A stretch of 64,000 nt of DNA from Candidatus Marinacidobacterales bacterium (GCA_965262245.1 OZ253507.1:2268690-2332689); one strand, 5' to 3'; counted from the first letter of the stretch, positions 1 to 64,000 are shown. Notes: generated by a model from the letters alone, not told the origin. Made by a program: numbers and translations.

Positions 1-475
1 GAACGCTGGTCGCGGGCCGGTCGGCAAAACTGCCGTCGTGGGCGCGAAGGACCGCGCGACCAACCGCGTGAGTGCCGCCGTAGTCACGAGCACGGACGGC
101 GATACGCTCAAGAGATTCGTTACTGAGCGGGCCGAGGTTGGAGCGAAGGTGTACACCGACGACCACGGCGGCTATGTTGGGCTGCCGAACCACGAGACGG
201 TCCGCCACTCCGTTGCAGAGTATGTAAAAGGACAGGCGCACACGAACGGGATCGAGTCCTTCTGGTCGATGCTCAAGCGGGCGCACAAAGGCACGTTTCA
301 CAAGCTTTCTCCGAAGCATTTGCAGAGGTACGTAGACGAGTTCGCCGGCAAACACAACATGCGCGACTCAGGAACGCTTGCGCAAATGCGCGACACTGTC
401 GCTCGGATGGTCGGTCGCAACCTCCTCTATCGGGATCTCATCGCGGACAACGGCCTTAGCTCGATGCGGTCGTAG
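1..475 (+). CDS. IS1595-family (ISXO2-like) transposase, C-terminal part; 5' end cut by window edge
   Basis: The 145-aa translation aligns closely with the C-terminal half of the full IS1595-type transposase at 27064..27987 (VYTDDHGGY...HSV.EYV.GQAHTNGIESFW..LKR...GTFH...KHL.RY..EF). Basis: sequence comparison within the window. Confidence 0.8.
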   Translation, partial: NAGRGPVGKTAVVGAKDRATNRVSAAVVTSTDGDTLKRFVTERAEVGAKVYTDDHGGYVGLPNHETVRHSVAEYVKGQAHTNGIESFWSMLKRAHKGTFHKLSPKHLQRYVDEFAGKHNMRDSGTLAQMRDTVARMVGRNLLYRDLIADNGLSSMRS

Positions 476-581
476 TGGACGGAAAAGGGCGCGGGCCAGA
501 GTCTCGGGCGTCGCGCCTACTAGATCGCGCTTCGGGTCTAACATCGGCTTCATCGTTTCCTCCTAATCGAATTGGATGCCT

Positions 582-680
582 GCGTTTTGAAGTTCTGCGT
601 TTTGAAGTTCTGCGTTTTGAAGTTCTGCGTTTTGAAGTTCTGCGTTTTGAAGTTCTGCGTTTTGAAGTTCTGCGTTTTGG
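582..680. repeat. 15-bp direct tandem repeat GCGTTTTGAAGTTCT x6.5
   Basis: Six perfect copies plus one partial copy are seen directly in the sequence, immediately 3' of the IS1595 transposase fragment. The overlapping ORFs 475..753 and 572..796 (LRFEVLRFEV...) are translation artefacts of the repeat. Confidence 0.95.
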
Positions 681-683
681 GCT

Positions 684-953
684 TCACGACTTTTTCCAAG
701 ACGCCCGTGCCTTCTTTAACTCACGATGCTTTGCGAGTGGTGCAATTTTTTGAAAAAAGACAAACCAGTCTTTCGGCCAGGCTTCAAACTGGCTAGTTGT
801 CATTCTTCCTGCATCGATCAAGGGTGTTGGGATTTTCAATTGATCAAGTTCGTACTGTAAATCTAGGATTAACGCAAACCTTTCTGGCTGGAGGGGATTG
901 CTATTTATTAGTTTTGCCGCTTCGTCTCGACACCTTACAATCTCTGGATGCAA
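684..953 (-). CDS. Hypothetical small protein in a low-GC (~42%) segment; TTG start, no recognisable domain
   Basis: 89-aa ORF in an AT-rich island (about 780..1130) that contrasts with the ~62% GC surroundings. It has a non-ATG start and could be non-coding. Confidence 0.25.
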   Translation of the reverse strand: MHPEIVRCRDEAAKLINSNPLQPERFALILDLQYELDQLKIPTPLIDAGRMTTSQFEAWPKDWFVFFQKIAPLAKHRELKKARASWKKS

Positions 954-1193
954 CCTAGAAAATTGTACCGCAGGGCCTCAGCCCGTTTATCCATTTCAAA
1001 TTTGTCAAGATAAGCATCAATGTGCAAAACGTAAGGATGGCAGCGAATTCTGGCGCACCGAGTTCAAGATTCATCGTTAGTCCGTCTTTGTAAGCCCAAC
1101 GGACCAGGGCAAAGATGTCTCCGGTAAAGAATGCTGAGTTCCAAGCTAATTTCGCCTTCCGCACCGCCCGAGAATGTCATGAATGCGCGCGCG

Positions 1194-2980
1194 TCAAGTA
1201 GTCTTTGTAATTCCCACTTTTTTCCCGTCCAACCATGTTGCAATCGTGCGCGCGTGATTATCGTGGACGATAGAGACGCGTTGCCACTTGTCCTTCACAA
1301 ACGGTCTGTCGTTGGACGGCGCTCTACTGAGCCATCGTTCCCCTCTGATTTCGATTTTTGTCCACAATGTGTAACCAAGGATCCAATCGTATTGTTGAAC
1401 TTGTATTCGAATGGGACCGGCGCGGACAATGTCGTACAGATTGGGGCTTGGACGCGCCTTCATGCGAAAACTGACCGTGAAGGCGTGACCGAGAACAACG
1501 GCCGGCTTACACTCGAAGCGAAGTTCGGTCTTGCCGTTCAGGTGAAGCGCCCTGCCATGTGGCCCGTCGATGTAAACGCCCGTATCTTGCGCAGGAGCTT
1601 TTGAGCAAGGGCCTCGGCCGTCGAGCGCGTCTTCGAATGCGAAGGCGATCAACGGTCCATCGTCGGGTTGCGTGGGGCGCGGGAGGGCGGTCAAGCGAGC
1701 CAGCTCCTTGATTGCTATAGGCCGTTTGTAGTTGCGAGTCTTTGAGTCGCCGAGAAACGCGCGGATCGTCGAAAGATAAACGCCTGCCTGTGGTCCGGTG
1801 GTTGACATCGCGTTGAAAGAAGCAAGCGAGAGATCCGTATCCTTGCTCTCGTTGAAGAAGTGTACGAGCCACGTCCTCAATCTTGGGTCTTTTTGCCCGA
1901 GCGTCACAATCAAGTCGACCGTAGGTTCTGCGACCGAGTTTTCACCGTCATATTGTGCAGCCGTGAAAAGATGGCCTAGTGCCGGATGCGCTGCTTCGCC
2001 CATGGCTGTCAGAGCCTCGAGCGCGTCGTGGCGAGGGTTACCTTTCTCCGGCAGACGGATTCCTGCAACAATTTCACCCAAGCGTTCGGCCGCGGGCGCC
2101 GCTGCCGGCCCAAGACCCTGGAGCGCGTGAATAACAGCCAAAGTGTGCTCGCCAGGCTCCAGCAACGGGAGCAGCAGCGGCATCGCGGCAGCGGCATCGC
2201 GGCAGCGGCTTTGGGACCCACGTGATAAAGGGCGCCGATCGCTCTCTTGGTATGTTTGTTCTGTTCTATCCAACGCATATACATGGGCACAGCCGGTGCT
2301 GCGTGCGCTTTGCAGTCATGCAGCAAATCGACAAGCTTGCGAGTAAAGTCGTAATTTTCGTTGGGATCCCACGACGTTTCATCGCGCTCGAAGAGTGCCA
2401 GCACGTCGTGCACCGTGGCCGCGGGGTCACCACGAACTTCATGAAGCGCGGCGATCGTTCTTGCTGCATGGCTTCTTGACGTGGTCTGGAGGAGGGGCTC
2501 GATGTCTGCGACCAAGGTCCGGCCTTTTTCTTTCAAGTTCGAAGCGACGAGCAAAGCTGCGTCGCGCCGTTCTTGGTGATGCCCGTCGAGGTAAGTGCGG
2601 CATAGGGGGATGGCGATGGCAGGGTCGAGGCTCAACTCGGTCAATACGTTACTGAAGCGCTCGCGATGGTGGTCTTGTTCCGCATCGAGCGCCTCGAACA
2701 AAAGGGGCGCGTATTGGTTCGATCCAGCTGGATAACTTGGTAACGTGCCAGCGGCTGCCCACTTGAGATTGTCGTCTCGTAATCCGGCCAAGATGAGGGG
2801 AATAGCAATTTCGTCCTCAATGCCAGCGGGCTTTGAGATATTCCAAGGCAAAGTATTGTGTCTTCCAGTCGGAATGTTCAGCGGCTCGCTCGAACGAGTG
2901 GCCGAGCTCGTGGCTTGCTGGACCAAAGTTGCCATCTTTGAGATACGCACGTGCTCGTTGTCGTACGAGCTCGTGCTCAT
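1194..2980 (-). pseudogene. HEAT-repeat + LamG/concanavalin-like domain protein, frameshifted by a 14-bp tandem duplication; may extend into ORF 955..1164
   Basis: ORF 2009..2980 (HEAT-like repeats PLILAGLRDD..., ...GPKAAAAMPL) and ORF 1194..2273 (AAAAMPLLLPLLEP... then a LamG-like C-terminus W..DGKKVG) are collinear in different frames. Removing one copy of the duplicated 14-mer CAGCGGCATCGCGG (2176..2189 = 2190..2203) restores a single frame. ORF 955..1164 (FFTGDIFALVRW) may continue the LamG domain after another shift. Confidence 0.6.
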
Positions 2981-3473
2981 CCAATACGAAGGGCATTATC
3001 CGGTGGTCGAATGCTTCTTTGTGCGTGAGCTCGATTGGGGGGAGAATGGTGCCTCGTCTGATCACGCCCAGGCGGTCGATCGCAGCTGCGCGTGCGCTGC
3101 CCTTGTTGGTTTCGGCGTAACGGATCACATAGTCGGCCATCTGTTCAGCGGTGAGATCGTCGGCGACGTGCCATATTTCGGCGGGTGTATAGGCGTCGTA
3201 GCCATTGAGGAGTTTTACCCCGCAAGCCATGACCATCCAGATCCCTGCCGCGCCGTACATGGCTGCTTGCAGGAGGATTTTGCCCAGGCCCGCGCTTACT
3301 GCTTGTCGCGCGCCGCGCTCGTCTGTGTCGGTGAGAAGAAAAACATATTCGAGATCGCGCGCGTTCCGGGGTGCGCTCCCCATCGCCAAACGTTTGACTT
3401 TGTTGCTCGCCGATCGCGGGCGGACCAGTGGTTTGACTACGAGACGCTCGGATCCCACTGCATCGGAGGACAC
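2817..3473 (-). CDS. Putative Zn-dependent peptidase (HExxH motif HELGH; DUF2268-like); start uncertain
   Basis: The 218-aa ORF has an HELGHSFE metalloprotease motif near the C-terminus. It overlaps the annotated start of the downstream HEAT-repeat ORF by ~160 bp, so one of the two starts is wrong or a further frameshift exists. Confidence 0.4.
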   Translation of the reverse strand: MSSDAVGSERLVVKPLVRPRSASNKVKRLAMGSAPRNARDLEYVFLLTDTDERGARQAVSAGLGKILLQAAMYGAAGIWMVMACGVKLLNGYDAYTPAEIWHVADDLTAEQMADYVIRYAETNKGSARAAAIDRLGVIRRGTILPPIELTHKEAFDHRIMPFVLDEHELVRQRARAYLKDGNFGPASHELGHSFERAAEHSDWKTQYFALEYLKARWH

Positions 3474-3483: not shown

Positions 3484-4560
3484 TCACTGACGCGTCCGAT
3501 CAGGTAAACCGGGTCGCCCGGAAGGAGAACGCGGACTTCCGGGGCGGTCGTCGCCGCCGGCTGTCCCGAGCACGCCCAAAATCAAACTCTCGGCGAGCGA
3601 GCGCTTGAAGAGGTCGCTCGAGCGCGCACCCAGTGCGGCGCGAACCGCGAGCTCCCGACTAGCGGCCGTCGAGCGGGCGACCAAGACGTTGGCGATGTTG
3701 GCGCAGGCGATCAGCAGGACGAGGAACACCGCGCCCGAGAGCACCCACAGGATCGTCGTGAGATCGCCGAGCAGCTCCTCGCGCAACGGTCGGGCGGTCA
3801 GGCCCCAGCCGGCGTTGGAGTCGGGGTATTCGCGCGCCAGTTTCTCGGCGATGGCAGCGAGCTCGGCGCGCGCGCCTTCCACGGTGATACCGTCGGCGAG
3901 ACGGGCCATCGCGTCGAACATGCGGTGATCCCGGTCGAGCAGGACTCTGTCAGGGAGCCCCATCGGGAAGTACATCTCGACTTCGTCACTGCCGGGGGGG
4001 AACTGAAAACCCGGTTCGGTAACCCCGATCACCGTGTAGGGCTGGTTGTCCAACTCGAGCGTGGAGCCGATGATGGATGGGTCGGCCCCGAAGCGCCGCG
4101 TCCACGACGCGTGCGTGATGACCAACTTCTTCCCGCGCCCTGGCGTCTCGTCATCGTCGACGAAGAACTGGCCCACGGCTGGTTTCGTTCCGAGAACACG
4201 GAACATTCGGGCCGTCACCACGAGACTGCCAACCCTGACCGGTTGTTCGAGACCGGTCAGCGTGGACCCCATGGAGCGGTACAAAAGAACTTTCCCGTCG
4301 AAGGCTTCGGCGCCTTCGCGCAGGTCACGATAGGTGGGCGGAGACAAGCGAAAAGTGTCCTGCTGATCGGGCCCGCTGGTCGCCCATAGGACCACGAGCT
4401 TGCTGTCATCGCCATAACCGAGCGGGCGAAAGAGCACGCCGTCGACGACACTGAAAATCGCGGTGTTGGCGCTGATGGCGATCGCCAGAGTTGCGATCAC
4501 CACTAACGTGGGAACGGGTGTTTTGAGCAGCGACCGGGCTGCCGCCTTGAAGTTTTTCAT
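3484..4560 (-). pseudogene. ADOP-type (acidobacterial duplicated orphan permease) FtsX/MacB-like permease, N-terminal fragment only
   Basis: The N-terminus MKNFKAAARSLLKTPVPTLVVIATLAIAISANTAIFSVVDGVLFRPLGY matches the ADOP/MacB permease signature, and a periplasmic MacB-type domain and the first FtsX TM helix are present. The ORF stops after ~358 aa whereas full-length proteins are ~800 aa. The HExxH ORF starts immediately downstream, implying truncation or deletion. Confidence 0.6.
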
Positions 4561-5335: not shown

Positions 5336-5808
5336 TTACGAAAGCATACCTTGCTGCGGGTCCAACTCTCCCCGTAGCTGCTTGCGGGCGCGGCGTAGAT
5401 GCGTGCGAATCGTTCCTTCGCCGACCCCGAGCATCCGTGCGGCTTCGACGCTGGTGAAGCCTTCGACGTTGCAGAGTCGAACGCACGATTGCTGCATGGG
5501 TGCGAGTGCCTCGATGGCCCGCTCGATGTCGGCAACCACGAGCGCATCAACGGCGGGCGGCGCCGGCGGCTCGTCTTGAAGCAAAGTGAGTGGAGCAAGA
5601 GCCGCGCGCCGACCATCCTTGCTGATCGCCGTTCGGGCCACGTTGCGAACGATGGTGTAGAACCATGCGCTGAACGGGCGCCGATCGTCGTAGTCCGCGA
5701 GGGCGCGTACCGCTCGATGGAAAGGTCCTGGACGACGTCCTCGGCATCTTCGAGGCGGCGCGTATATTGCCAGGAAAGGGCCATCGCGGGGCGCAGATAG
5801 CGGCGCAC
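5336..5808 (-). pseudogene. ECF sigma factor (sigma-70 regions 2 and 4) with a frameshift between the regions
   Basis: Region 2 (RRYLRPAMALSWQYTRRLEDAEDVVQD) is in the frame of ORF 4972..5808. FHRAVRALADYDDRRPFSAWFYTIVRN and region 4 (SFTSVEAARMLGVGEGTIRTHLRRARKQL) are in the frame of ORF 5336..6001. The frames switch at GGAAAGG (about 5718..5724). Confidence 0.6.
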
Positions 5809-6236
5809 GAGGACGCGCCATCATTTCGCGAAAGGGTTCCTCGAGCGTCTCACGCTGGGCGGCCGTTAATTCGAGCCGTTCGGCGATAGCGGTGAAGTGG
5901 TCCGGTGGGTCGGCAGAGTGGCCGTGCTGCGCCTCCCCGACTCCAACCGCGAAGACGGCGGCTAGCAACACGGTCATCATGGCGCGATGGTGTGTCCTCA
6001 TGGGTCAACTCCTCTTACATTTCGGGTGTGCTCCTCCTTTGGAGCACCCTCTTCCACACTGTACTCGCGAGAGCGCGGATCCGTTGACACCGACCCGCGA
6101 CTTTCTTCGATCTCCCGCTCTGGTTGCTTTCGGTCTCCCAGGCCGCTAGATTTCCCTATTACCAAAGGTTACGAATGGCGCTCACTTCCGGAACACGCCT
6201 CGGCTCCTACGCGATCGTTGCGCCGATCCTCACCGC

Positions 6237-11745: not shown

Positions 11746-12550
11746 TTGACAACTGATGGGAGGTTTCTCATGACCAGGTCGATGTTGGTGATCGGGATGG
11801 CGTTGGCGCTCGTGTCCCCCGCGCTCGCGCAGGACGGTCCGGCGCAGTTTCAGCAAATGGTTCACTTCACCGTCAAGCCCGGGATGGAGGACCAGTTCGA
11901 AGCGATCGTCAAGCAGTACGTCGAGGCCGCGGACAAGACAGGCGCGCCGAATCGCTGGAACGTGTTTCATCAGGGCCCCGGCGGCTCTCCGAACCATTAC
12001 CACCTCGTGACGAGCTTCAACGAGTTTTCGGAGCGAGATGCGTGGACAGGCCCTGGCGAGATGTTCATCGAGGCGCACGGTGAAGAGGAGTTCGCCGCCG
12101 CCAATCGCCGGTGGGCCGCAGCCGTTACGAACGTCCACATCACGCTCTCCACCCACCAGCCGGATCTGAGCACGAAGAAAGACCGCCGGAGGCATCCGGA
12201 ACCACTACCTCGCCACGAACACCGAGATCAGACCGGACAAACTCCAGGAGTACCGCTGGGCGATCGGGAAAATCCGCGAAGCTCAGGACAAGGCGACGGG
12301 GTCCCCCGCGGTGGTCGGGCGGCGAATCTCAGAGGGCAACCGCTGGGTGTTCCGGTCCATCACGGGGTTCGACAACGGCGCGGACCGCGACGGCTGGACT
12401 CCGTTCGGCGAGTTCATGTCCATCTACACGGACGAAGAGCGCGATCAGATCATGGACACGCTTCGCAGCACCATCGTCAGCAGCCGGTGGTACGAAGTAA
12501 CCCGCCGACCCGACCTCAGCCACACCGGTCCGGCCGGCTCGACGAACTAG
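11746..12550 (+). pseudogene. Secreted protein with two tandem homologous domains; frameshift between the domains
   Basis: RBS GGAGG before ATG 11770 and a signal peptide (MTRSMLVIGMALALVSPALA). Domain 1 is in the frame of ORF 11746..12576 (...NRWNVF..NEFSERDAWTGPGEMFIEAHGEEEF). Domain 2 (NRWVFRSITGFDNGADRDGWTPFGEFMSIYTDEERDQ) is in the frame of ORF 12311..12550. The switch is at AAGAAAGACC (about 12175..12185). The stop TAG 12548..12550 lies in the CTAG target duplication of the adjacent IS. Confidence 0.5.
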
Positions 12551-14991: not shown

Positions 14992-15864
14992 TCAGAATAC
15001 CTTTCTCGTTCCGCGCTCTTCGCGGCCGATCCAGCCAGATGCTTCGAGGGCTAGAGATACTTTTCCGTTCAAATCAATGGCGGCGAGCTGAGCCGGGAGC
15101 CGGCTCCCTTCGAGGCTCGCTTGAAACACGCCGACGCCCGTCCCGCTCGTCGAGCTCTCGACGGCAGCGAGCTCTTCGAGAAAGAGCTCGGCGCGCCGAA
15201 TGGTTCGAAGGAGGTCCCGGTCTTTGTCAGCATCGAGTGCGGTCTCGAGGAGTCTTCCGTCTCTCAAGAGCTCGCTTGCGCGCTCGCGGGTGAGGAACAG
15301 ATCTTCGGTGCTCACGACATCGACGGAAAGCTCCATCACGCCGACGAGAAGATCTTGGAGACCGTCGACGTAGCGCACACCGACGTCGGACAGAAGCTCG
15401 GCGCGCTCGAGCGCCAAGAGTGCTTCAGGTGAGATGTCGAGATTTTCGACCGCGGCGATCTCCGTGAGTCCGGCGCTCGGCGGTGTGTCGAGCCGGCCGA
15501 TGCCGATCACGAGAACCGCGGCCATCGCCACGAGCTCGTAAGCGCGGTGGGCTCGCGCCGGACTTTCGGCCGGGGCCGGGGGCTCGAGCCGCCGTTTCAG
15601 AGCGATCCACGCTTTTTCGGAGCGCTCGCCGTCGGCATTTTCAGCGGGCTCGGACCACCGATCTCCGTAGGGAAGCAGTGCCTCGGAAACGTTGCTGAGA
15701 GCGGCAAAGGCGACTTGCGCGTCGTCGAGCGCCTCGCGACAGCCGCGGCAGTGTTCGACATGTTCTCGAAGTGCGGCCTCAGCCGCTCGGTCGAGCTCGC
15801 CGAAAAGTAAGGATTCGAGCTGCGCTTCTCGATCTGTACAGGCTGTACAGGCTGCTGGATTCAT
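14992..15864 (-). CDS. Anti-sigma factor (zinc-finger, HxxxCxxC type)
   Basis: N-terminal LREHVEHCRGCREALDD is a ZAS-like zinc-binding motif. The gene lies immediately downstream of an ECF sigma gene; the C-terminal region is predicted helical. Confidence 0.5.
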   Translation of the reverse strand: MNPAACTACTDREAQLESLLFGELDRAAEAALREHVEHCRGCREALDDAQVAFAALSNVSEALLPYGDRWSEPAENADGERSEKAWIALKRRLEPPAPAESPARAHRAYELVAMAAVLVIGIGRLDTPPSAGLTEIAAVENLDISPEALLALERAELLSDVGVRYVDGLQDLLVGVMELSVDVVSTEDLFLTRERASELLRDGRLLETALDADKDRDLLRTIRRAELFLEELAAVESSTSGTGVGVFQASLEGSRLPAQLAAIDLNGKVSLALEASGWIGREERGTRKVF

Positions 15865-16426
15865 CGTCTGACTCCCTTTCGGGCTTTCAAGAAAACTCCG
15901 AGCTTTCGAATACCGCGAAAGACTTGCGTGCGTGCAGTGACCTCGTTGCAGCCGAGGGTTTCGGCAATGACGCGCATCGGAGCTCGTCGAAAAACCGCAT
16001 CGTCACGGCCGCGCGCTGGCCTTCGGGCAGACGCTCGAGGGCTGCTTTCACTGCTGCGGCGCTCTCCGCGCGCAGCAAGCTCGTTTCCGCTTCGGCAGGC
16101 GCGACGTCGATCGGCCTCTGCTCTTCGTCGATGCGGGCTCGCCGGCTCACTTTGCGCCTGTCCTCGATTGCGCGGTTGACGGCAATGCGGCAGAGCCAAG
16201 GATAGAAGCGCTCGGGCTCCCTCAGCCGAGGTAGCTCCTTCAGCGCGGCTACGTAAGCGTCCTGTACCATGTCTTCTGCCAAAATCCTGTCTCTGACGAC
16301 TCCAAAAACGACGTGCACCACGCGATGGTAATAGCGGCGGTGAAGCTCGCCAAAGCTATCCAAATCTCCGGAAAGCGTTCTTTCGACGAGCTTTACGTCT
16401 GCGTGTGCTTCAGCGAGCTCGGGCAT
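15861..16426 (-). pseudogene. ECF sigma factor with a -1 frameshift before region 4
   Basis: Region 2 (DMVQDAYVAALKELPRLREPERFYPWLCRIAVNRAIE) and LPEGQRAAVTMRFFDEL are in the frame of ORF 15887..16426. The region-4 HTH (MRVIAETLGCNEVTARTQVFRGIRKL) is in the frame of ORF 15861..16199. The shift is near 15975..15982. Confidence 0.6.
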
Positions 16427-17290: not shown

Positions 17291-17820
17291 GTGGGTGTTC
17301 TGCTACTCGAAGAAGTCGACGAAGCGAAGCTCGGGAAGCTGCTCTTGCGCTACGGCTTGTCGCTGAACCACGTTCCCGCCGGCCGCGCGATACCTGGAAG
17401 TTATTGGGGCGATAGCGAAGCGGGTCTCGTCGAAGATCAGCTCTATGCTCGGCCCGACACGCCGATCCACTCCGTGCTGCATGAAGCGTCGCATTTCGTG
17501 TGCATGAACCCATCCCGCCGCGCCTGTCTCGAGCGCGACGCGGGCGGCGACGACGTTGAAGAGAGCGCGGTTTGTTATCTCCAGGTGCTCTTGTCCGATC
17601 ACATTTCGCAGATGGGCCGCGATCGAATGTTTCGCGACATGGATAGCTGGGCTACAGTTTTCGTTTGGGCTCGACGAAGAGCTGGTTCGACGAGGATGCC
17701 GAGGACGCGCTATCTTGGCTTCGAGCCGAAGGATTGGTGGATGAGAAGGAGGCCGCTCTTTGGGTCGGGGCAAGAATAAACTACCAAGTCTTTGTCGTAA
17801 TTCATCTGCTGCAGGGATAA
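17291..17820 (+). pseudogene. Small hypothetical protein with HExxH motif (HEASH); frameshift near 17645..17670
   Basis: The N-terminal part is in the frame of ORF 16616..17779 (...IHSVLHEASHFVCM...). A clearly protein-like C-terminus (STKSWFDEDAEDALSWLRAEGLVDEKEAALWVGARINYQVFVVIHLLQG) is in a different frame and ends at 17820. GTG start. Confidence 0.3.
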
Positions 17821-25041: not shown

Positions 25042-25559
25042 CTAGCGTGCCATCGCTTTTTCTTTTTCTTGCTTTGCCACCAGCTCTTCTTCGATGGCCC
25101 CGGGAACCGGCAAATAGCGTGAGAACTCCATGGTGAAATCGGCTTTGCCTTGCGTTGCGGAACGGAGCGTCGTGGCGTAGCCGAACATCTCGGCCAGCGG
25201 AACCTCGGATTCCGTGATGGTGGTGCCCCCATTCTCCTGCTGCCCGATGATCGCGCCGCGGCGCTGCATGAGCGTCGTCAAGACACCGCTCGCATGATCG
25301 GTGGGGGCTTCGACGACGACCCGCATGATGGGCTCGAGCACTTTTGGCTGGCTCCGGTCATAGGCTTCGCGCCACGCCCCGCGCGCCGCTTGCTGGAACG
25401 CGACGTCGGACGAGTCTACCGTGTGGTGGGCGCCATCGTTGATCACGACACGCGCGTTGACAACCGGTGCTCCGATCTTTCGGCCTTTCTCGAGCATCGA
25501 CTTGAAGCCTTTCTCCACCGCCGAGATGAACTGGCGCGGGATGACGCCGCCTTTGATAT
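25042..25559 (-). pseudogene. fusA: EF-G (fusA-like) C-terminal portion (domains IV-V), separated from the N-terminal portion by the IS1595 R-M element
   Basis: Reading from the TSD: IKGGVIPRQFISAVEKGFKSMLEKG...DGAHHTVDSSDVAFQQAARGAW...AEMFGYATTLRSATQGKADFTMEFSRYLPVP matches EF-G domains IV-V. It continues the frame broken at 28048. Confidence 0.85.
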
Positions 25560-25589
25560 GGGAATTATATATTTGACGCCACCAGCCTA

Positions 25590-27987: not shown

Positions 27988-28047
27988 GCCCTATCTCCTA
28001 CCACCACTATAGCCTGTTTAGCTGGTGGCGTCAAATATATAATTCCC

Positions 28048-46159: not shown

Positions 46160-47173
46160 GGCGCGACACGAAGCTCTCAGCACTCTTGCTGCTCTTGGCG
46201 TCGATTCACGGAGTCGCGATCCTCGCAGGGTTCTTCTCGCCCTATTCGTATCGCGAGCAGAATCGCGACGTGCCGCTTGCGGCGCCGACCAAGCTGCGAT
46301 GGGTCGATGGGAGCGGCGGGTGGCATCTGCGCCCTTTGGTCGAGAGCCCCCTTGCGGGCGGCGCATTGGTGCCGCTTCGCTTCTTCGTTCGGGGTAGCTC
46401 TTATTCGGTTTTGGGTCTGTTCGGATCGGACTTACATCTCTACGGCGTCGATGAGCCTCATCGCGTCTTTCTTCTTGGTACCGACGCTCTCGGGCGCGAT
46501 TATTTTTCGCGGCTCGTCGTCGGCGCACAGGTGTCGCTGACAGCAGGCCTCGTCGCTGCGGCGCTCGCTCTCACCACGGCCTTGAGCCTCGGCGCTCTCG
46601 CCGGCTATTTCGGCGGCTTCATCGACTCTGCGATCATGAGACTCGTGGACGTGTTCTTGAGCTTGCCTTGGATTTACATGCTTCTCGCCGCGCGCGCTTT
46701 TCTCCCCCTCGACATGGCGCCGGGGACGGCGTTTTTCGTGATCGTCGTGCTTCTCGGCCTTTTGGGATGGCCGGCGCCGACGCGCATCGTGCGCGGCATC
46801 GTGATGAGCGCGCGCGCGCGACTACGTCGAAGCCTCCCGGGGCGCCGGCGCCGGGCACCTCCACTTGCTCTAGCGCCACATCCTCCCACAGGCTCAAAGC
46901 GCGATAGCGATCCAAGCCACCCTGCTCGTGTCCGCCTACATGCTTGCCGAAGTCACCCTTTCCTACGTGGGCCTCGGCGTCGGCGAGCCCCTGCCGAGTT
47001 GGGGAAATATGCTTGCCGACCTGCCGCGGGGGAGCCTTCTCGGCGCCGAACCCTGGACCTTCGCACCGGCCTTCTTGCTTGTCGGCGTGACTTGGCTCTA
47101 TCATTCGGTCCTATCGTCTCTCGGGGGCCATCATTCGCGCGGGAGTTGGGGGCGCGACGCGAGGTTGACTTGA
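46156..47173 (+). pseudogene. ABC transporter permease (DppC/OppC-like) with a frameshift in a (GC)6 run and an in-frame TAG
   Basis: The N-terminal part is in the frame of ORF 45118.. up to ...IVRGIVMSARAR. It continues in the next frame from GCGCGCGCGCGCG (46808..46820) as RDYVEASRGAGAGHLHLL*RHILPQAQ. The TAG at 46871..46873 replaces a sense codon. The C-terminus SAYMLAEVTLSYVGLGVGEPLPSWGNMLAD is ORF 46928..47173. Confidence 0.75.
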
Positions 47174-47205: not shown

Positions 47206-48627
47206 ATGTACGTGCTAGCGCATTTCATCCTTTTTTCTTGCTTTGCCGTTGTCGGCCACAGCGAGCAGCGCGGTGGCCGGCTCGTCGTGAGCGAAACGTC
47301 CGAGCCGAAACATTTCAACCCGGTTACGGCGGTCGATTGGGCGACGAAGACGGTGGTGGGTCTGCTGATGGCGGACCTCTTGCACATCGACCGTGAGGAC
47401 CAGAAGGTCTATCCGAACCTCGCCTCAGATTGGGACGTCTCCGAGGATGGGCGCAGCTATACGCTGACCCTTCGCGAGGGCGTTCGTTTCTCGGATGGTC
47501 ACCCCGTCGATGTGGACGACGTGCTGTTCTCCTTGCGGGTCAATCTCGACGAGGCGATCAACTCCCCGCAGCGGGGACTTTTTATCGTTGGTGGGGAGCC
47601 GATCCGGGCGCGCAAGCTCGGTGCGCGTCGTATCGCCTTCGAGCTCGCCGGGCCCTATGCCGCGGGCGAAAGGCTGTTCGACTCGTTCTACGTCTTGCCC
47701 CGCCATCGACTCGAAGAGTCCTATGAGAGCGGCGAGCTCGCGAGCGCGTGGGGCCTTCTCTCGGATCCGGAGCGCATCGTCGGCCTGGGTCCGTTCCGAC
47801 TCGAGCAAGTCGTGCCGGGCGAGCGGATCGTCCTTGAGCGCAACCCTTATTACTGGAAAGTCGACGAGGCCGGCGAGGCTCTGCCTCATCTCGATGAAGT
47901 GGTCATTCTCATGACGCCTTCGGAAGACGCGGAATTGTTGCGGTTCAAGGCCGGCGAGATTCACATGATCCAAGATCTAGGCTTCCGGGATTTCGACGCG
48001 CTCGATGCTGAATCGAGTTTCGCGATGCGCGATCTCGGCCCCGGGCTCGAGCACAACTTTCTGTTCTTCAATCTCAACGATCGCGCAGGCGGGGAAGACG
48101 AAGATCTGGACACCCGTCAGAGCTGGTTCCGGAACGACGCGTTTCGGCGCGCTGTGTCGGACGCCATCGATCGCCAGTCCATGGTGCGGCTCGTCTATGG
48201 AGGGCGCGCAGCGCCGCTCGCCTCACACGTCACGCCGGGAAACAAACTTTGGATCAACCGGAGTCTCGTCGTCGCGCCATATTCGGAGGCGCTAGCGAAG
48301 GAGAGTTTTCGAGACGCGGGCTTTCGATGGAACGAAGCGGAGCGCCTCGTAGACGCTGAGGGGCGCCTCGTGGAATTCTCGATCCTCACGAGTGCCGGGA
48401 ACCGTCCACGTTCCATGATGGCGAGCTTGATCCAGGAGGATTTGCAGCGGGTCGGGATCGAGGTCACCATCGCGACGCTCGAGTTCAGGGCCTATGTCGA
48501 TCGAATCTTTCAGGGACGTGATTTCGAGACGGCGCTTCTTGGTTTGGGAGGCTCGGACGCGGATCCGAATCCCGAAATGAGCTTCCTGGGTCGCAGTGGT
48601 GGAGCCAAGGCCTTTTCGGCGACATGA
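47206..48627 (+). pseudogene. ABC transporter substrate-binding protein, family 5 (Dpp/Opp-type), 3'-truncated at the IS insertion
   Basis: Signal peptide MYVLAHFILFSCFAVVG; SBP_bac_5 motifs through GLGGSDADPNPEMSF. The expected last ~70-80 aa are missing, and the ORF ends where the IS1634-like element begins. Confidence 0.7.
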
Positions 48628-50493
48628 GTTTCGTACGATAGAGGCAAGGTGGCGGAGCAGAGTTCTGAAACTGTAAGCGGGGCTTCCGTCCTCCAGCTTT
48701 TTGGAGCGCACTTTTCGAAGAGCGGCCTGCGAACGCTTGGCCGGTGCCACAGGGTCGCGGCTTGCCTTGGCATTCTGATCTTCGTCAGAAAAAAGCACTG
48801 GTCGCCACGCCTCAAGCATGTGCCATTCAACGTAGTAGGCCAGCATACACAAGAAGATGTGTGCCCGGACTCGGTTTTCGAGACGGTGGCGAATAGGCCG
48901 CACCTTGAGGTCCATGGTCTTGAATGAACGAAACGCACGCTCGACTTGGGTGAGCAACTTATAGCTGCGGACGGTATCCTCAGTGTTCATCTGCTGTGCA
49001 CTGAGACTGGTGCGAATCACATAGATGCCGTCCAGTGCGGCTTCTGCCTCGACCTTCTTTTTGTCGATTTCGAAGGAGAAGGCATCGTCACGAATATCTA
49101 GTTTGAAGTGTTTTCCGACTTTGTACTTGTTGAGAACTTTGCCTACCCGCACCCCTATAGTGGCTTTTCCATGGAGCTGACCGTGCTCGATTCGCTGACG
49201 CAGTTGCTCCATTCGCCTGGCGATAGTCTTCATATGCTGTTTCCACCGGGCGAGTTGCTTGTCAGCTAACACACTATTGTCTTTAGCAATGTGCGCAGCA
49301 TCGACAGCCATCGTCGTCTCGTCGACCTTGAAGTCGAAGCCGTCGTCACGGGTCTCGAACTTGTAGTACTTGCCCACCTTGTATTCAGCAAGGAGTTTTT
49401 GCACTCGGGCATTGATGTCTTCCCTACCGTGCAAGCGGCCGCGTTCGACCATCCGGCAAATCCTTTTCAGTTCTTTGCTGGTCGCTTCGAGCAATTCCTG
49501 ACGCTTTAGGGCTCGGCGCTTCGCCAGTTCGTGGTTGCGACAGGCCACGAGACGCTCGTTGGGAAAATCCGAGTGTGTCAACTCAAACAAGTTGCGCTCG
49601 TCAAACAGCCCCATCTGCAGCGCCCCTTCGTTGAGGAGTTTGCGAATCGGCGCGGGTCGCAGGGCTGTAATCCAATCAATGCCCTCGAAGTCCTGTAAAG
49701 CGTCAACCTGTCTTTGGGTGATCATTCCGCGGTCGCCGACCATCACAAACCGCTTGATGCCGAACTGCTCTTGCACCTTTACTACTTGAGGTAGAAACGT
49801 TTTCGGATCGCCGGTGTTGCCCTCGAACACCGATACCGAGACAGGGACGCCCCTTTGGTTGGTCAAAAGGCCGTAGTTGATCTGGAGTTTGTTTTTCTTA
49901 CCGTCGCGGTTGTATCCGAGGCGGGCCAGGGGGCACTTTTCTCCCTCGAAGTAGCTTGAGCTCAAATCGTACAAACCAAGTCCACCGTTTTCGAGGTGAC
50001 GCGCCGCCAGTTTTTTCTCAATAACCCTTTGGCGCTCGAACACCCAGTCCATAGCGGCATATAGGTCGTCCTCGTCGGCATCACTCACACCGAGGATTTC
50101 GGGCAACGTTGTGCTGTGCCACCACTGGCTCGTTGCCAACCTCGACTGGGCTTCGAGTATGCGGGCGGCCACCATAGCCACCACCAGGTCACGTTGGCGT
50201 GAGCGTCGGGATGCGACGAGTTTGTCGAACTCAAGGCGTTTCATCGCGCTCAACACGGCCTCGACGCCACCGTGGAGTCGCGACCCGTCGGGCACAACCT
50301 CGAAGACGTCCTCGACCGCGACGAGTTTTTCTCCCTTGAGAACCCGTCGAATGGAGTCGACCTGCTCGCTTGGCAGTTTGGACAGGTTGGCAATTGTGCG
50401 CTTGCGCGGTTTCTTGCTTTTGGCGTCGCGAAAGGACTCACGGAGCAAAACGGCGGGTTTGGAGTTGCGGTTGGGCACAATGTCGATGTGCAT
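48292..50493 (-). CDS. Large DDE transposase (IS1634/IS4-like), 733-aa ORF; C-terminal ~100 aa probably read-through into flanking DNA
   Basis: Begins MHIDIVPNRNS; long transposase typical of the IS1634 group. Family-level call from length and architecture only. Confidence 0.6.
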   Translation of the reverse strand: MHIDIVPNRNSKPAVLLRESFRDAKSKKPRKRTIANLSKLPSEQVDSIRRVLKGEKLVAVEDVFEVVPDGSRLHGGVEAVLSAMKRLEFDKLVASRRSRQRDLVVAMVAARILEAQSRLATSQWWHSTTLPEILGVSDADEDDLYAAMDWVFERQRVIEKKLAARHLENGGLGLYDLSSSYFEGEKCPLARLGYNRDGKKNKLQINYGLLTNQRGVPVSVSVFEGNTGDPKTFLPQVVKVQEQFGIKRFVMVGDRGMITQRQVDALQDFEGIDWITALRPAPIRKLLNEGALQMGLFDERNLFELTHSDFPNERLVACRNHELAKRRALKRQELLEATSKELKRICRMVERGRLHGREDINARVQKLLAEYKVGKYYKFETRDDGFDFKVDETTMAVDAAHIAKDNSVLADKQLARWKQHMKTIARRMEQLRQRIEHGQLHGKATIGVRVGKVLNKYKVGKHFKLDIRDDAFSFEIDKKKVEAEAALDGIYVIRTSLSAQQMNTEDTVRSYKLLTQVERAFRSFKTMDLKVRPIRHRLENRVRAHIFLCMLAYYVEWHMLEAWRPVLFSDEDQNAKASRDPVAPAKRSQAALRKVRSKKLEDGSPAYSFRTLLRHLASIVRNSCRRKGLGSTTATQEAHFGIRIRVRASQTKKRRLEITSLKDSIDIGPELERRDGDLDPDPLQILLDQARHHGTWTVPGTREDREFHEAPLSVYEALRFVPSKARVSKTLLR

Positions 50494-50650
50494 GGTTACT
50501 ATATACTCTATTAAAGATTATATTACAAGAGCTATATGCGTTATTACATGGCTCAAAATGCAGGCGGAGTTCGTATCTCTATCGTTGTAACTCCTTGCAA
50601 CTAAGGGTGCTTCACCGAAGAAAGAGAGGTTTTACCGAGGGGAACTTCAG
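48292..50650 (-). mobile_element. IS1634-like (IS4 superfamily) insertion sequence; left end at 50650 well defined, right end about 48600..48630
   Basis: The left end is defined by identity to the solo copy at 11554..11730. The right end is inferred from where SBP homology stops and from a subterminal motif similarity (48630..48650 vs 50575..50600). The transposase ORF reads through the presumed right end to 48292. Confidence 0.65.
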
Positions 50651-51372: not shown

Positions 51373-54241
51373 CGATCGGGACCAGTTGCTGATGAGCGAG
51401 CTGGGGAAGCTGACGGAAGACGACGCCTTGCAAGCGTTCATCAGACGTCACCCGGAGCTTGTTCGGAGTGACTTCGTCGGGGCGCTCTCGGACACTGTTG
51501 TGAAGCAAGTTCGCGTGGACGCCGATGCGGCGCTCGCGCTCGCGCGGGCGAGCTGCGCGATAGCGGACGAGCTCGGGGAGGAGCGAGATCTTGCGCAAGC
51601 GGAGAAAGCGATGGGAAACGCTTTCTACGGACTAGGAGAATATCGTGTTGCGGTCGATCGTTACGAGCAATCGGCGGCGCGTTTCGAGGCATGCGGTGAG
51701 AACGTGGAGCAGGGAAGGGCCCTCAGCACTTCGATTCAGGCGCGTATTCTCCTCGGCGATTATGACTCCGCCGCCGACGCCGCGGAGCGCGCCCGAACGA
51801 TCTTCGAGAAGATCGGCGATCGGAAGCGTCTGGCTATCCTCGACAACAATGTCGGGAACATCATGCATCGCCAGGACCGGTTCCACGAAGCGCTCGCGAT
51901 GTATGAGCGCGCCTATCGAACGCTCGCCGAATTGCAGGATACGAATGGTGTCGCGGCCGCTCTGAGCAACGTGACCCTCTGTTTGATTATGCTGAACGAC
52001 TTCCCGCGCGCGCTCGAAATCCACCGCGAGGCGCGTGAGGTTTGTGAGGAGCTCGGCATGCCGAGGCTCGTCGCTCGCGCGGACTACAACATCGCTTACC
52101 TGTATTACCTCCGCGGGGAATATTCACGTTCGACCGAGATGTTGAACACCGCGCGACAACTGTTCAAACGCAGCAGCGACGATTATCACGTCGCTCTCTG
52201 CGACATGGATCAAGCGGAGATTTATATCGACCTGAATCTTCATGCGGAGGCGTCCCGTCTCGCGAGCCGCGCGCGCAAACAATTTGCCAAGCTCGGCACT
52301 GGATACGAACAAGCCAAATCGATGGCGCTCGAGGCGATAGCACTCAGCAATCAAGGGAAGATCCTTCGCGGGCTCGATCTTTTCGAGAAGGCGCGGGAAA
52401 GCTTCGTGCGGGAGAAGAACCAAGTGTGGCCGTGGATGATCGATCTTTATCGCGCGTTCGTCTATGGCGATGAAGGGCGGTTGATCGAGGCTCGGCAGCT
52501 TGCGCGCCGCGTGCTCCCCATCTTCGAGGAAGCGGGACTAGGGGCCAAAGCGATCGTCTGCCGGCTTCTCCTCGCGCGCCTCGCACTGAGAATCGGTGAT
52601 TGGCGAGCGGCGCGAAAAGACTGCGAGGAGGCTCTCGAGCGTGCGTCGGCCATCGATTCGCCTCTCTATGTCTTCCAGGCGAGGTTCCAGATGGGCGAGA
52701 TCGAGGAGGCCGCGGGCCACACGGCCGAGGCCATCCAGAGCTTCGAGGCGTCGGCCAAAACACTCGAATCCTTGCGCAGCAGTCTTCAGCGCGAAGAGAT
52801 GAAGATCGCTTTTCTTCGTAATCGGTTGGGTGTCTACGAGTCGCTCGTCGATCTGTGCCTGAAGAGCGCCCCGGGCACTGAGCCTAGGACTGAGCTTGAT
52901 CTTGACGCGAAAGAAAAGGCGCTTTACTACATCGAGCAGTCGAAAGCACGAGCGCTCGTAGATCTCATCCTCGGCTCGATCCGCGGCCGGCCACACGCCT
53001 CGGGCGAGAGTGAGTTCGCGCGCACGGTCCAGAAGCTCAGAGAAGAGCTCAATTGGTACTATCGCCGTATCGAGCACGAGCAGCTGAGCCGTGAGTCCTT
53101 CAATCTCTAGCGTTTGGAGGAGCTCACCAAGACCGCCCGGGCGCGAGAGACCGAGCTTCTCGATGCGCTGCGGGAGCTTCCTGCCGGCGACGGCCGTTTC
53201 GGGAGTTTGCGCGATACTGGGGCCGTGTCTCTGGCGCGCATTCAAGAGGCGCTTGGGCCGAATCGCTCTCTCATCGAGTACTACATTGCGCGCGGACGGG
53301 TCTACGCTTGCGTGATCACACAAAGCGATCTCGTCATGCGCCCGCTCGGGGACGCCGAGCACGTCAAGAACACGGTACGGCGGCTTCAGTTCCAGATTTC
53401 GAAGTTCCAGCTGCCGCGAGACTATCTTGCGACGTTCGAAAGCTCGATCCACGAGGCGACCGTCGTTCACTTGAACGAGCTCTATGAAAGTTTGGTCGGA
53501 CCCCTCGTGGATGCGCTGCGGGGAAGCGAGCTCGTCATCGTTCCCCACGCTTTCATGCACTACCTACCGTTTCACGCGTTTTATGACGGCCGTCGCTACG
53601 TCGTCGACGACTATGCGGTGTCCTACGCTCCGAGTGCGACTGTTTTCGTTCACTGTCACGAGCTTCCGGCCGCGGAGGGGAATCGCTCCTTGATCTTGGG
53701 TATTCCGGATCGGACCGCTCCGTTTATTCTGGACGAGGTGCACGCGGTCGCGGATGCGGTTTCCGAGCCCGAGGTTCTGCTCGGCTCGGAGGCCTCGCTC
53801 AAGGCGCTGCGGGAGAAGGCGCCTGGTAGCCGGCTCATGCACATCGCCACCCATGGCCGAAAGGACAACCCGATGTTCTCGGCGATCCGGCTCGGCGACT
53901 CCTACTTGAGCCTCTACGATCTCTACGAGCTGTCATTGCCCGTGGACCTCGTGACGGTGAGCGCTTGCGCGACAGGCTTGAGTGTCGTGGTGGAAGGTGA
54001 CGAGATTCTCGGACTCGTTCGCGGCTTGCTCTTTGCGGGGGCGCGGTCTTTGGTCGCGACGCTTTGGAACGTGCAGGACCGGGCGACGGCCGACTTGATG
54101 GGCTCGTTCTATTCGCATTTGCGAACGGAGAAAAATCGCGCCGTGGCACTTCGCTATGCTATGCTCCAGCAGCGAGAAAGGTCTTCCCAGCCTTTCTTTT
54201 GGGCTTCCCGCGTGTTGGTGGGCAAGGTGGAGCAGGGGTGA
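51365..54241 (+). pseudogene. TPR-repeat + CHAT (caspase-like) peptidase, one reading frame interrupted by an in-frame TAG at 53108..53110
   Basis: ORF 51365..53110 carries TPR repeats. ORF 53114..54241, in the same frame, carries the CHAT domain with the His/Cys dyad (MHIATHGRKD; VTVSACATG). The sequence reads ...SFNL*RLEEL.... Confidence 0.75.
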
Positions 54242-56472: not shown

Positions 56473-56475
56473 CGG

Positions 56476-61577: not shown

Positions 61578-62343
61578 ACACAATATGACTGCATTGATCG
61601 AGATCAAGAACCTGCACGCGAAGGCCGAAGGGCGCGAGATCCTTCACGGCATCGATTTGACGATTCAACCCGGCGAAGTGCACGCCATCATGGGACCGAA
61701 CGGCTCGGGAAAGAGCACGTTGTCACAAGTGCTGGCGGGACGTGACAGCTTCGAGGTCACCGAAGGGGAAGTGCTCTACAATGGAAAGGACTTGCTCTCG
61801 CTGACGCCCGAAAAGCGCGCCTGCGAAGGTGTCTTCCTTGCTTTTCAATATCCTGTCGAGATCCCCGGCGTGAACAACACTTACTTTTTGAAGGCGGCCC
61901 TCAACTCCGTCCGCAAATACCGGGGCGAAGACGAGCTGGACGCGATGGATTTTCTGAAGCTCGTGCGCGAGAAAGTCAAGCTCATCGAGCTCGCCGAAGA
62001 GCTCATAAACCGTCCGGTCAATGAAGGATTCTCGGGCGGCGAGAAAAAGCGCAACGAGATTTTCCAGATGGCGGTGCTCGAGCCGACCTTCGCAATCCTC
62101 GACGAGACCGATTCGGGGCTCGACATCGACGCTCTCCAAGTCGTGGCTGCGGGCGTGAACGCGCTTCGAAGCAAAGAGCGGTCGATGCTCGTCATCACCC
62201 ACTATCAGCGCCTCTTGAACCACATCGTTCCGGACTTCGTCCACGTTCTCTTCGACGGCCGTATTGTTCGCTCGGGCGGCAAGGAGTTGGCGGAGAAGCT
62301 CGAAGAAGAGGGCTATGGCTGGCTCGAGACGAAGGTAAGCTGA
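61570..62343 (+). CDS. sufC: Fe-S cluster assembly ATPase SufC
   Basis: Walker [11 protein letters not shown], signature [11 protein letters not shown], Walker [12 protein letters not shown]-loop. Overlaps the sufB stop. Confidence 0.9.
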
Positions 62344-62346
62344 GTC

Positions 62347-63669
62347 GTGGCTGTGATCGAGTCCGCTGAAGACGAGCTCCGCTCGTTATTTCTCTCGCGC
62401 TCAACGGAGCGCAGCAGCGAAAGCGAGCCCGGCTGGCTCGCTCTCGTGCGTAAAAACGCCTTCGAACGTTTTCTCGACAAGGGTTTTCCGACCACACGCG
62501 ACGAAGACTGGCGTTTCACGAATGTGGGCGCCATTGCGAGGCGGGCTTTCGAGTTCGCGAGCGATGGGGCTGAAGCCGAAGACGAAGCGCGCACGCTTCT
62601 TGCGAGCCTCGGTCTCGAGGCCCTCTCTCGGCACGAGCTCGTTTTCGTGAACGGGCAGTTCTCGCAAAACCTGTCCTCGCTCTCCGATCTTCCTGACGGC
62701 GTCGTCGTTTCGAGCCTCGAGAACGCGTGGTCGCACTCGATCGAAGAGCTCCAACCTGTGCTCAGTCGCAGCCCTTCGGACGAGACCGCATTTTTCGACC
62801 TCAATGAAGCCTTCGTCGCTGATGGCGCTTTCGTGCACATAGGAAAAGGCGTCGTCGTCGACGCGCCCATCCATTGCGTGTTCCTGGCCGTGCCCACGGG
62901 CGAGCCCTTCGTTCATCACCCGCGGAACGTGATCGTGGCCGGGGAGCAGAGCGAGGCTCGCATCGTCGAGACCTATGCCGGCATAGAGGGCTCGACTTAC
63001 TTTACGAATGCGGTAACCCAGCTCGTCGCGCGGCCGGGCTCGGTCGTCGATCACTACAAAGTCCAGCGCGAGAGCGTGAAAGCGTTCCACGTGGCCAGCC
63101 TGGATTTCGCTCAGGAGCGGAGTGCTTCGGTCTCGAACCATTCGCTCTCGATCGGCGCCGCGCTGGCCAGAAACGACATCCGTGCCGAGCTCGGCGGGGA
63201 AGGGGCCAACGTGACGCTCAACGGCCTTTACGTCGTCAAGGGCAGCCAGCATGTGGATCATCACACGGTGATCGACCATCAAGTCGCGCATTGCACCAGT
63301 CGTGAGCTGTATAAAGGCGTTCTCGACGACGAGGCCACTGGCGTGTTCAACGGCCGGGTGATCGTTCGAGCGGATGCGCAGAAGACCGACGCGAAGCAAT
63401 CGAACAAGAACCTTCTTCTTTCGAAGGAGACGCTCGTGAACAGCAATCCCCAGCTCGAGATCCACGCCGACGACGTGAAGTGCGCGCATGGCGCCACCAT
63501 CGGCCAACTCGATGCGGAGGCGTTGTTCTACATGAGGACTCGGGGAATCGAGCTCGACGAAGCCCGCAAGATTCTCACCGAAGGCTTCATGTCCGATGTG
63601 AGCGACCGGATTCGAGTTGACGCTGTTCGAAAAGCAGTACGTAGGCTCTTGTTCAAGGACGCGGCCTAA
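62347..63669 (+). CDS. sufD: Fe-S cluster assembly protein SufD
   Basis: SufB/D-family beta-helix protein following sufC (...HTVIDHQVAHCTSRELYKGVLDDEATGVFNGRV). Confidence 0.85.
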   Translation: MAVIESAEDELRSLFLSRSTERSSESEPGWLALVRKNAFERFLDKGFPTTRDEDWRFTNVGAIARRAFEFASDGAEAEDEARTLLASLGLEALSRHELVFVNGQFSQNLSSLSDLPDGVVVSSLENAWSHSIEELQPVLSRSPSDETAFFDLNEAFVADGAFVHIGKGVVVDAPIHCVFLAVPTGEPFVHHPRNVIVAGEQSEARIVETYAGIEGSTYFTNAVTQLVARPGSVVDHYKVQRESVKAFHVASLDFAQERSASVSNHSLSIGAALARNDIRAELGGEGANVTLNGLYVVKGSQHVDHHTVIDHQVAHCTSRELYKGVLDDEATGVFNGRVIVRADAQKTDAKQSNKNLLLSKETLVNSNPQLEIHADDVKCAHGATIGQLDAEALFYMRTRGIELDEARKILTEGFMSDVSDRIRVDAVRKAVRRLLFKDAA

Positions 63670-63687
63670 TTCTCGAGGTACCAGCCA

Positions 63688-64000
63688 ATGACCGTGAGCA
63701 GCAATGCAGAAATCTCGACGAGCAGCGCGTCGAACCGTGATTTCGACGTCGATCGTGTCCGCGGCGATTTTCCGGGCTTGCATCAAACGGTCCACGAGAA
63801 GCCGCTCGTCTTTCTCGATAGCGCCGCAAGCGCTCAGAAGCCGCAGCAAGTCATTGACGCGATCTCGAACTTCTACGCCCATGACTACGCGAACATTCAT
63901 CGCGGCGTCCACGAGCTCAGCCAGCGCGCGACGAAAGCCTACGAGAACGCTCGCCTGAAGATCCAGCGATTCCTTGGCGCGCCGTCCGAGCGCGAAATCA
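63688..64000 (+). CDS. sufS: Cysteine desulfurase SufS/CsdA, N-terminal part (runs off window)
   Basis: MTVSSNAEI...DFDVDRVRGDFPGLHQTVHEKPLVFLDSAASAQKPQQVIDAISNFYAHDYANIHRGVHELSQRAT matches class V aminotransferase/SufS N-termini. Confidence 0.85.
   Translation, partial: MTVSSNAEISTSSASNRDFDVDRVRGDFPGLHQTVHEKPLVFLDSAASAQKPQQVIDAISNFYAHDYANIHRGVHELSQRATKAYENARLKIQRFLGAPSEREI

Follow-up and report, generated by a model that had tools for sequence, protein, structure and literature searches.

Window features

The window is a chromosomal stretch of 64,000 nucleotides (GCA_965262245.1 OZ253507.1:2268690-2332689), probably from a contig of ~10.2 Mb. It carries roughly 60 genes and six insertion sequence (IS) elements: ISNCY, ISAzo13, IS256, IS1595, IS1634, and a second IS1595 copy at the window edge. 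Eleven frame-changing sites were located in nine genes. Two in-frame TAG codons and no fewer than five truncations or IS insertions add to these, and in total about 12-13 genes are disrupted. An earlier note on this DNA had reported an unusual density of frame disruptions, with at least 11 genes in need of a frame change. The density is real and 11 frame-changing sites were confirmed, but they are distributed over nine genes, not 11. The density of disruptions is genuine and above that of a typical genome, and it probably represents ordinary IS-associated gene decay in a mobile-element-rich region of an uncultured Vicinamibacteria lineage.

All but one of the ten true frameshift lesions lie in the first 31 kb, the IS-rich left half of the window (binomial p about 0.008), and the three lineage-private indels found between 28 and 45 kb all lie inside the EF-G and ABC1 kinase genes. 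No frameshift was found in the ~20 core genes at 31.7-45 kb and 54-64 kb. An association with homopolymers is weaker than had been proposed: runs of at least 4 nt host only three of the sites (A8 in the ISAzo13 transposase, G5>G6 and G4>G3), the others being located in runs of 1-3 nt, in a dinucleotide repeat or in a tandem duplication.

The nearest relatives of the host, as judged from the intact ABC1 kinase against species-representative genomes, share 86-89% protein identity and are metagenome-assembled genomes (MAGs) named Acidobacteria bacterium or Candidatus Marinacidobacterales (class Vicinamibacteria). The host is an uncultured acidobacterium of the class Vicinamibacteria, probably of the order Ca. 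Marinacidobacterales, with a large genome; it comes from soil or sediment and is presumably free-living. No papers were found on Ca. Marinacidobacterales, nor on Vicinamibacteria together with metaMDBG.

Gene mapping and comparison set

Genes were mapped by a codon-usage score and later by a profile of codon log-odds for which intact genes served as the training set; a frame plot of third-position G+C was dropped in favor of that profile, as its signal is too weak at 60% GC. Domains were annotated with Pfam and NCBIfam profiles. Comparators were found by exact-product look-up in public assemblies, which returned 18 loci of the same species in 11 ENA assemblies. This look-up was the decisive step: each frame disruption could then be checked at single-base level against other assemblies.

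Two of these assemblies belong to the lineage of the window. One is contig_255 of ERZ25068832 (loci L001, L002 and L004), which covers 1-38553 and is 99.98% identical to the window over 24.4-38.5 kb but noisy at 7-24 kb. The other, ERZ25069191, has two contigs at 9-10x depth: L003 covers 1-14560 with eight substitutions and one indel relative to the window, and L009 covers 48546-64000 with five substitutions and no indels. Sister lineages (L005-L008, L010-L017 and L024) are 98.4-99.9% identical to the window. An exact-product look-up with DppB, the truncated binding protein, an aminotransferase and a molybdopterin oxidoreductase found no own-lineage contig for 38.5-48.5 kb. At 7260-7690, contig_255 (L002) differs from the window by ~50 positions in 430 bp, a block ~12% divergent with identical flanks at the junction of a phosphomannose isomerase and a phosphoglucomutase gene, for which a recombination event involving a diverged allele, or a consensus that mixes strains, could account.

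Reproducibility of the disruptions

The own-lineage assemblies reproduce nine of the 11 frame-changing sites and the sister lineage L013 reproduces the tenth (A8), while DppC is without a comparator. Apart from the A run, contig_255 has all nine sites in its range in common with the window, and the ERZ25069191 contigs have all four in theirs. Intact counterparts at 89-99.9% identity were found for EF-G, the ABC1 kinase, DppC, the binding protein, both sigma factors, the HExxH ORF (open reading frame), HEAT/LamG and TPR-CHAT; as these are orthologues in close relatives, the lesions are derived.

The earlier note had raised the possibility of an insufficiently polished assembly, in which random long-read consensus indel errors would be concentrated in homopolymers. 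The single-base lesions do all lie in identical-base runs (1-8 nt), the contig names point to long-read assemblers, and contig_255 contains exactly this kind of noise, with 17 indels in 14 kb. Single-base run-length changes that break ORFs are also what consensus errors of nanopore or PacBio CLR reads look like. Real slippage mutations also favor short runs, so the association with runs does not discriminate error from mutation. The comparison with other assemblies does. Outside the divergent block of contig_255, there are 42 sites at which the window and its own-lineage assemblies differ. The window stands alone at five of them, all substitutions, and in each of the 19 indel disagreements a third assembly agrees with the window. 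Among the homopolymers of at least 6 nt, 30 of 32 have equal length in all covering loci, T8 and G7 included; the exceptions are A8, where contig_255 alone differs, and G6, which differs by lineage. Thus the disruptions do not scale with run length, and most of them lie in runs of 1-3 nt. In the core region, alignments of 13.9-15.5 kb in length with L005, L006 and L008 are free of indels, as is the interval 30562-43988 when compared with seven loci. The lesions recur in other assemblies and samples, follow lineage, spare core genes and cluster in dispensable, IS-flanked genes, and random consensus error is very unlikely as their source. For the 14-bp duplication, the IS1595 unit with its repeats and the truncations, an origin as read error is impossible.

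Disrupted genes of the left half

The coordinates of the disrupted genes, the IS elements and the substitutions private to the window are given in Table 1.

Table 1. Genes, lesions, IS elements and window-private substitutions, in order of position
Feature	Position	Strand	Description
HEAT/LamG (Laminin_G_3) pseudogene	1194..3236	-	two frame changes; last 59 codons missing
HEAT/LamG frame change 2	2174..2209	-	perfect 14-bp tandem duplication, GCCGCTGCCGCGAT on coding strand
HEAT/LamG frame change 1	2828..2830	-	+1 C, CC>CCC
ADOP-family duplicated permease, truncated	3484..4560	-	N-terminal 42% only
ECF sigma #1 remnant	5336..6001	-	1-nt deletion at ~5723-5725
MacB-type gene	10868-11593		periplasmic core domain alone kept; ends where IS-end repeat begins
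Secreted-protein gene	11770..12550	+	+1 A at 12178-12180, AA>AAA
ISNCY	12728-14092		
ECF sigma #2	15864..16426	-	1-nt deletion at 15978, CCC>CC on coding strand, inside region 4
HExxH ORF	17291..17817	+	1-nt deletion, GGGG>GGG at 17649-17651
ISAzo13-family transposase	17921..19662	+	orfA 17921-18724, orfB 18721-19662
A8 run	18681-18688	+	putative recoding site between orfA and orfB
IS256-family element	20799-22227		present or absent by lineage
Window-private substitution	24320		CTCGAG>CTCTAG
EF-G gene (TIGR00484 type)	25045..29625	-	three hits: two frameshifts and IS1595 insertion
IS1595-family unit in EF-G	25560..28047	-	2.5 kb, complete; perfect 27-nt inverted repeats
MvaI/BcnI-like endonuclease, IS1595 cargo	25590-26171		Pfam/NCBIfam domains
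N6/N4 methyltransferase, IS1595 cargo	26279-27067		Pfam/NCBIfam domains
EF-G shift 2	28331-28332	-	-1, beside substitution at 28330
EF-G shift 1	28665-28666	-	+1
ABC1-family kinase	29869..31681	+	+1 G, G5>G6 at 30561-30566
DppC	46156..47173	+	(GC)7>(GC)6 at 46808-46819; TGG>TAG at 46871-46873
DppA-like binding-protein gene	47206-48615 and 50651-50770		~165 bp replaced by IS1634-family element
IS1634-family element	48589..50650	-	NF033559 match
Window-private substitution	49957		CTCGAG>CTTGAG
TPR-CHAT gene, 949 aa	51392-54241	+	in-frame TAG at 53108..53110
Window-private substitution	53108		CTCGAG>CTCTAG

The HEAT/LamG pseudogene aligns with the intact 728-aa homologue P0001 (89% identity) in frames -3/-1/-3. 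At the first frame change, the junction ...EYLKA|AGIEDE... fits P0001 only with one C taken out, and the extra C is common to L002 and L003. The second is a tandem duplication that TRF (Tandem Repeats Finder) describes as period 14, 2.6 copies and 100% matches; it is present in L002 and L003 and absent from P0001 and from P0002 (99% identical), and its description in the earlier note as a bona fide mutation stands. The exact frameshifted product was found on three contigs. A further frameshift that had been suspected in the LamG tail was ruled out: homology ends at 1215, and the final 59 residues of P0001 were found nowhere in the window, in any frame, as expected of a 3' truncation. A perfect 15-bp tandem repeat at 580-679 (CTGCGTTTTGAAGTT, 6.7 copies) adjoins an IS1595 copy; same-lineage L003 has five fewer copies.

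Two further truncations, in the ADOP-family permease and the MacB-type gene, are additional to those listed earlier. The permease matches positions 1-336 of the 803 of TIGR03434 and positions 3-61 of the 120 of FtsX. A repeat of 177 bp, ~99% identical, is present in two copies: that at 11554-11730 starts at the 3' end of the MacB-type gene, and that at 50475-50650 forms the right end of the IS1634-type insertion.

In ECF sigma #1, the 5' portion of a gene for an LTXXQ-type periplasmic protein (5815-6001) stands in place of codons 1-25, and Sigma70_r2 is divided over two frames. Intact homologues have 184 aa; one of them, P0088 (92% identity), aligns by aa 26-55 in frame -2 and by aa 57-184 in frame -1. 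The chimeric 221-aa product is identical on eight contigs. In ECF sigma #2, Sigma70_r4_2 is divided between profile positions 3-27 and 32-54 in two frames, and the repaired protein of 188 aa corresponds to P0004 (99% identity, 188 aa). At 15978, L024 reads GGG and the window GG; the frameshifted 179-aa product was found on 14 contigs, and L013 also carries the lesion.

The coding potential of the secreted-protein gene changes frame at ~12170. The additional A is common to L001, L002 and L003, and the exact 268-aa product is present on three contigs. L013 has one A fewer in AAGAAAGA at this site, and despite missing the extra A at 12178 its gene has a shift of its own at 12258. The frame change in the HExxH ORF is supported by coding potential and translation; L013 and L024, with GGGG at this site, encode an uninterrupted product, and the deletion is also found in contig_255.

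EF-G, the ABC1 kinase and the IS1595 unit

Both EF-G frameshifts were confirmed. The position 28665 given previously is right, while the second site, placed earlier at 28250, was ~80 nt off and lies at 28331. By tblastn, an intact 695-aa orthologue aligns in frames -2/-3/-2, with the C-terminus beyond the IS1595 insertion. EF-G is intact in all seven other-lineage loci and in the related species L018; both contig_255 loci carry the lesions, and the frameshifted product was found on two contigs. The inserted IS1595 unit is flanked by an 8-bp direct repeat, TTTGATAT, as a target duplication, and is not present at seven sister-lineage loci. Beside its transposase, the unit carries a Type II restriction-modification pair.

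For the ABC1 kinase, tblastn with the 603-aa orthologue places aa 1-232 in frame 1 but aa 232-603 in frame 2. Eight other-lineage loci have G5 at this run; the window and contig_255 have G6, and the frameshifted product is present on two contigs. Both EF-G and ABC1 are intact in the short-read MAG L018 of the related species. Among the other related-species loci (L018-L023), the neighborhood of EF-G, a 433-aa ATPase-like gene and ABC1 shows independent degradation: L019 lacks EF-G and the 433-aa gene, L020 has only remnants, with the ABC1 halves ~70 kb apart, and L022 has an ABC1 frameshift at residue 370. As this neighborhood is deleted, fragmented or frameshifted in related species, the genes appear expendable.

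The EF-G pair (+1/-1) and the HEAT/LamG pair (+1/+14) were considered as compensating changes and rejected: the frame is restored, but stop codons occur 8-50 nt after the first shift and the proteins are not rescued. Two such pairs are statistically unremarkable (about 1 in 4).

The dpp operon and the substitutions at CTCGAG

The window DppC needs two frames to match the intact DppC of L008 by tblastn. The TAG lies 60 nt 3' of the (GC)n repeat, in a gene already frameshifted and an operon already cut by an IS. Four assemblies have 6, 7, 7 and 8 copies of the repeat, and the frame is kept only by (GC)7. The IS1634-family element interrupts the alignment of the binding protein, of which aa 1-470 match on one side and aa 517-556 on the other, and L009 has the same structure. 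That repeat-length alleles vary among near-identical lineages, with three alleles of (GC)n in four assemblies, would also fit reversible phase-variation switches, in which case ABC1 (G5/G6) and DppC ((GC)6/7/8) would not be dead genes. The runs are short for contingency loci. DppC has its TAG in addition, and an IS has destroyed the partner gene in its operon. The assembly with the (GC)8 allele has a depth of 3.4x, and the ABC1 allele follows lineage, not sample. Phase variation is very unlikely.

The earlier note had regarded two in-frame TAG codons as bona fide mutations. Both are present, but the one at 53108, in the TPR-CHAT gene, is the one lesion contradicted by a same-lineage assembly: L009 (same lineage) and L007 have GAG, the TAG is private to this assembly, and the truncated 572-aa product was found on one contig only. 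It is also one of three window-private substitutions, among five, that lie at the central CpG of CTCGAG. The sequence occurs at 85 sites, 0.8% of the window, so that three in five by chance has a probability of about 5e-6, and no comparable CTCGAG bias was seen among the substitutions of the other assemblies. Being one of these three changes, the TAG at 53108 is suspect and probably a consensus artefact.

The simplest reading of the CTCGAG changes is a modification-linked consensus error, although the G>T type is unusual for such errors. Modification-induced errors in nanopore assemblies are documented; they are mainly substitutions, overwhelmingly A/G or C/T (PMC11610573). The window substitutions resemble them in being motif-specific and assembly-private, with three of five at the CpG of CTCGAG, and differ in that two of the three are G>T transversions and that the sequencing platform of the window may be other than nanopore. 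Alternatively, these changes could stem from a real site-specific process. In the whole window, TCGA (776 sites, 231 expected) and CTCGAG (85, 21 expected) are over-represented, and CTAG is depleted (60 sites, 231 expected).

A wider form of this explanation would attribute the frame disruptions themselves to systematic basecalling errors that depend on context or modification and arise from methylation peculiar to the lineage, for example by the IS1595-borne methyltransferase, which this lineage alone would carry. Besides the CTCGAG substitutions, it finds some support in an enrichment of assembly discrepancies near GGAG/CGGAG (p about 0.002), with six of the 42 sites near CGGAG where 3% would be expected. 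However, other lineages with the same sequencing and assembly give the intact allele in identical context, and the documented errors are mainly substitutions, not indels. MvaI/BcnI systems target motifs of the type CCWGG or CCSGG, and inspection showed none of the frameshift sites to fall within such a motif. The sigma lesions occur in L013 and on 14 and eight contigs, respectively for sigma #2 and sigma #1, and L013 has no EF-G locus and hence no insertion. The 14-bp duplication, the truncations and the IS insertions would be left unexplained. Systematic error of this kind is quite unlikely as the source of the disruptions, slightly less so than random error. A methylation motif as cause of the window lesions was rejected, as the GGAG/CGGAG enrichment explains only some errors of contig_255. 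Indel disagreements recur at GG(G)AG or CGGAG (e.g., 10423, 14335 and 15978) and are mostly contig_255 errors.

The A8 run of the ISAzo13-family transposase

The earlier note had counted the A8 run among the error-type frameshifts. To judge from the sequences of its relatives, it appears instead to be a native programmed -1 recoding site, acting by ribosomal frameshifting or transcriptional slippage, and not a lesion. The profile NF033519 matches with positions 3-76 in orfA and 88-387 in orfB. A protein-based scan gathered 80 related loci (L025-L104), mostly from short-read metagenomes and at 54-68% protein identity. In all 76 in which both ORF parts were found, the two are in different frames. 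Among 75 of these that were analyzed more closely, 71 have ORF2 in the -1 frame and 63 have exactly A8, in a motif close to GGAAAAAAAAC. JGI metagenomes gave no match when scanned for the exact sequence pattern around the A run. Within the species of the window, 271 orfA and 187 orfB near-identical products occur as separate entries. L013 also has A8, and the A9 of contig_255 is best explained as another of the numerous errors in that contig.

Conserved A8/A9 runs that fuse orfA and orfB in IS elements were described by Baranov et al. 2005 (PMC1088944). As in the orfA/orfB transposases of IS1, IS3 and the A8/A9 elements, the ORFs overlap, ORF2 is at -1 and a conserved A8 lies in the overlap; as in the A8/A9 elements, run length is kept, here among relatives at 54-68% protein identity. 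A difference is the family, ISAzo13, for which the NCBIfam model NF033519 describes a single-protein transposase, and no description of recoding in the ISAzo13 family was found in the literature.

Interpretation

The earlier suggestion of a decaying, IS-colonized accessory segment agrees with the six IS elements, the truncations, the genes with several hits and the intact orthologues in sister lineages. The accessory region (about 1-31.7 kb) and the neighboring dpp operon (45-51 kb) would have been inactivated recently, by slippage-type indels of 1-2 nt in short runs and in (GC)n, by one 14-bp tandem duplication, and by IS transposition and IS-associated deletions. The lesions would have persisted because the genes are dispensable; second hits may have gathered in genes already dead (EF-G, HEAT/LamG, DppC and sigma #1), and the decay would have been fixed in one lineage of a diverse population. 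Hints of gene loss or relaxed selection are indirect and consist of the multiple hits per gene and of the fact that related species have lost EF-G and ABC1 independently. The two sigma lesions are older, since L013 shares that of sigma #2 and the broken products of both are on many contigs. The lesions of EF-G, ABC1 and HExxH were seen in the lineage of the window only.

Several points weigh against ordinary decay as the explanation. The comparators are probably all long-read metagenome assemblies, apparently produced by a single project or a few related ones, which leaves room for systematic, lineage-specific errors. The sites 17649, 28331, 28665 and 30561 have a single own-lineage witness, contig_255; this contig is noisy elsewhere and may derive from the same sample as the window. 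For the DppC lesions, the window is the sole own-lineage record. The enrichment of discrepancies near GGAG/CGGAG also belongs here: the sigma #2 site is GG(G)AG, a context in which contig_255 makes insertion errors, although this is offset by the 14 contigs with the same product and by the intact allele of L024 in identical context. Finally, relaxed selection or drift as the cause of persistence is an inference.

An ongoing, lineage-specific burst of inactivation is another way to read the same lesions. IS transposition and slippage, possibly in a mutator, would then be the source, and the CTCGAG changes would be real, for example as loss of restriction targets. This is unlikely, though less so than either form of sequencing error. 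Ordinary IS-associated decay is by far the better supported reading, and the kind of phenomenon is well known. Expansion of IS elements with build-up of pseudogenes in recently diverged lineages is familiar from Shigella, Bordetella pertussis, Yersinia pestis and Burkholderia mallei. The window resembles these in its IS insertion polymorphism between near-identical lineages, its slippage indels and truncations in dispensable genes, its multiply hit dead genes and the intact orthologues of its close relatives. In contrast, the host is an uncultured, presumably free-living acidobacterium with a ~10 Mb contig, not host-restricted, and its decay is known from a 64-kb sample, not genome-wide.

Implications

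In annotation, the broken genes should be called pseudogenes and not 'repaired', the ISAzo13 transposase should be entered as an orfA/orfB recoding gene, and caution is advisable with the stop at 53108 in TPR-CHAT. Comparison across assemblies separates error from mutation, and here it reversed two calls of the earlier note. The A8 run is evidence that a large group of ISAzo13-family elements has a conserved recoding site, and the IS1595 unit is a mobile carrier of a restriction-modification system. Taken together, the window offers a limited but well-controlled view of how IS activity and gene decay proceed in co-occurring lineages of one uncultured Vicinamibacteria species.

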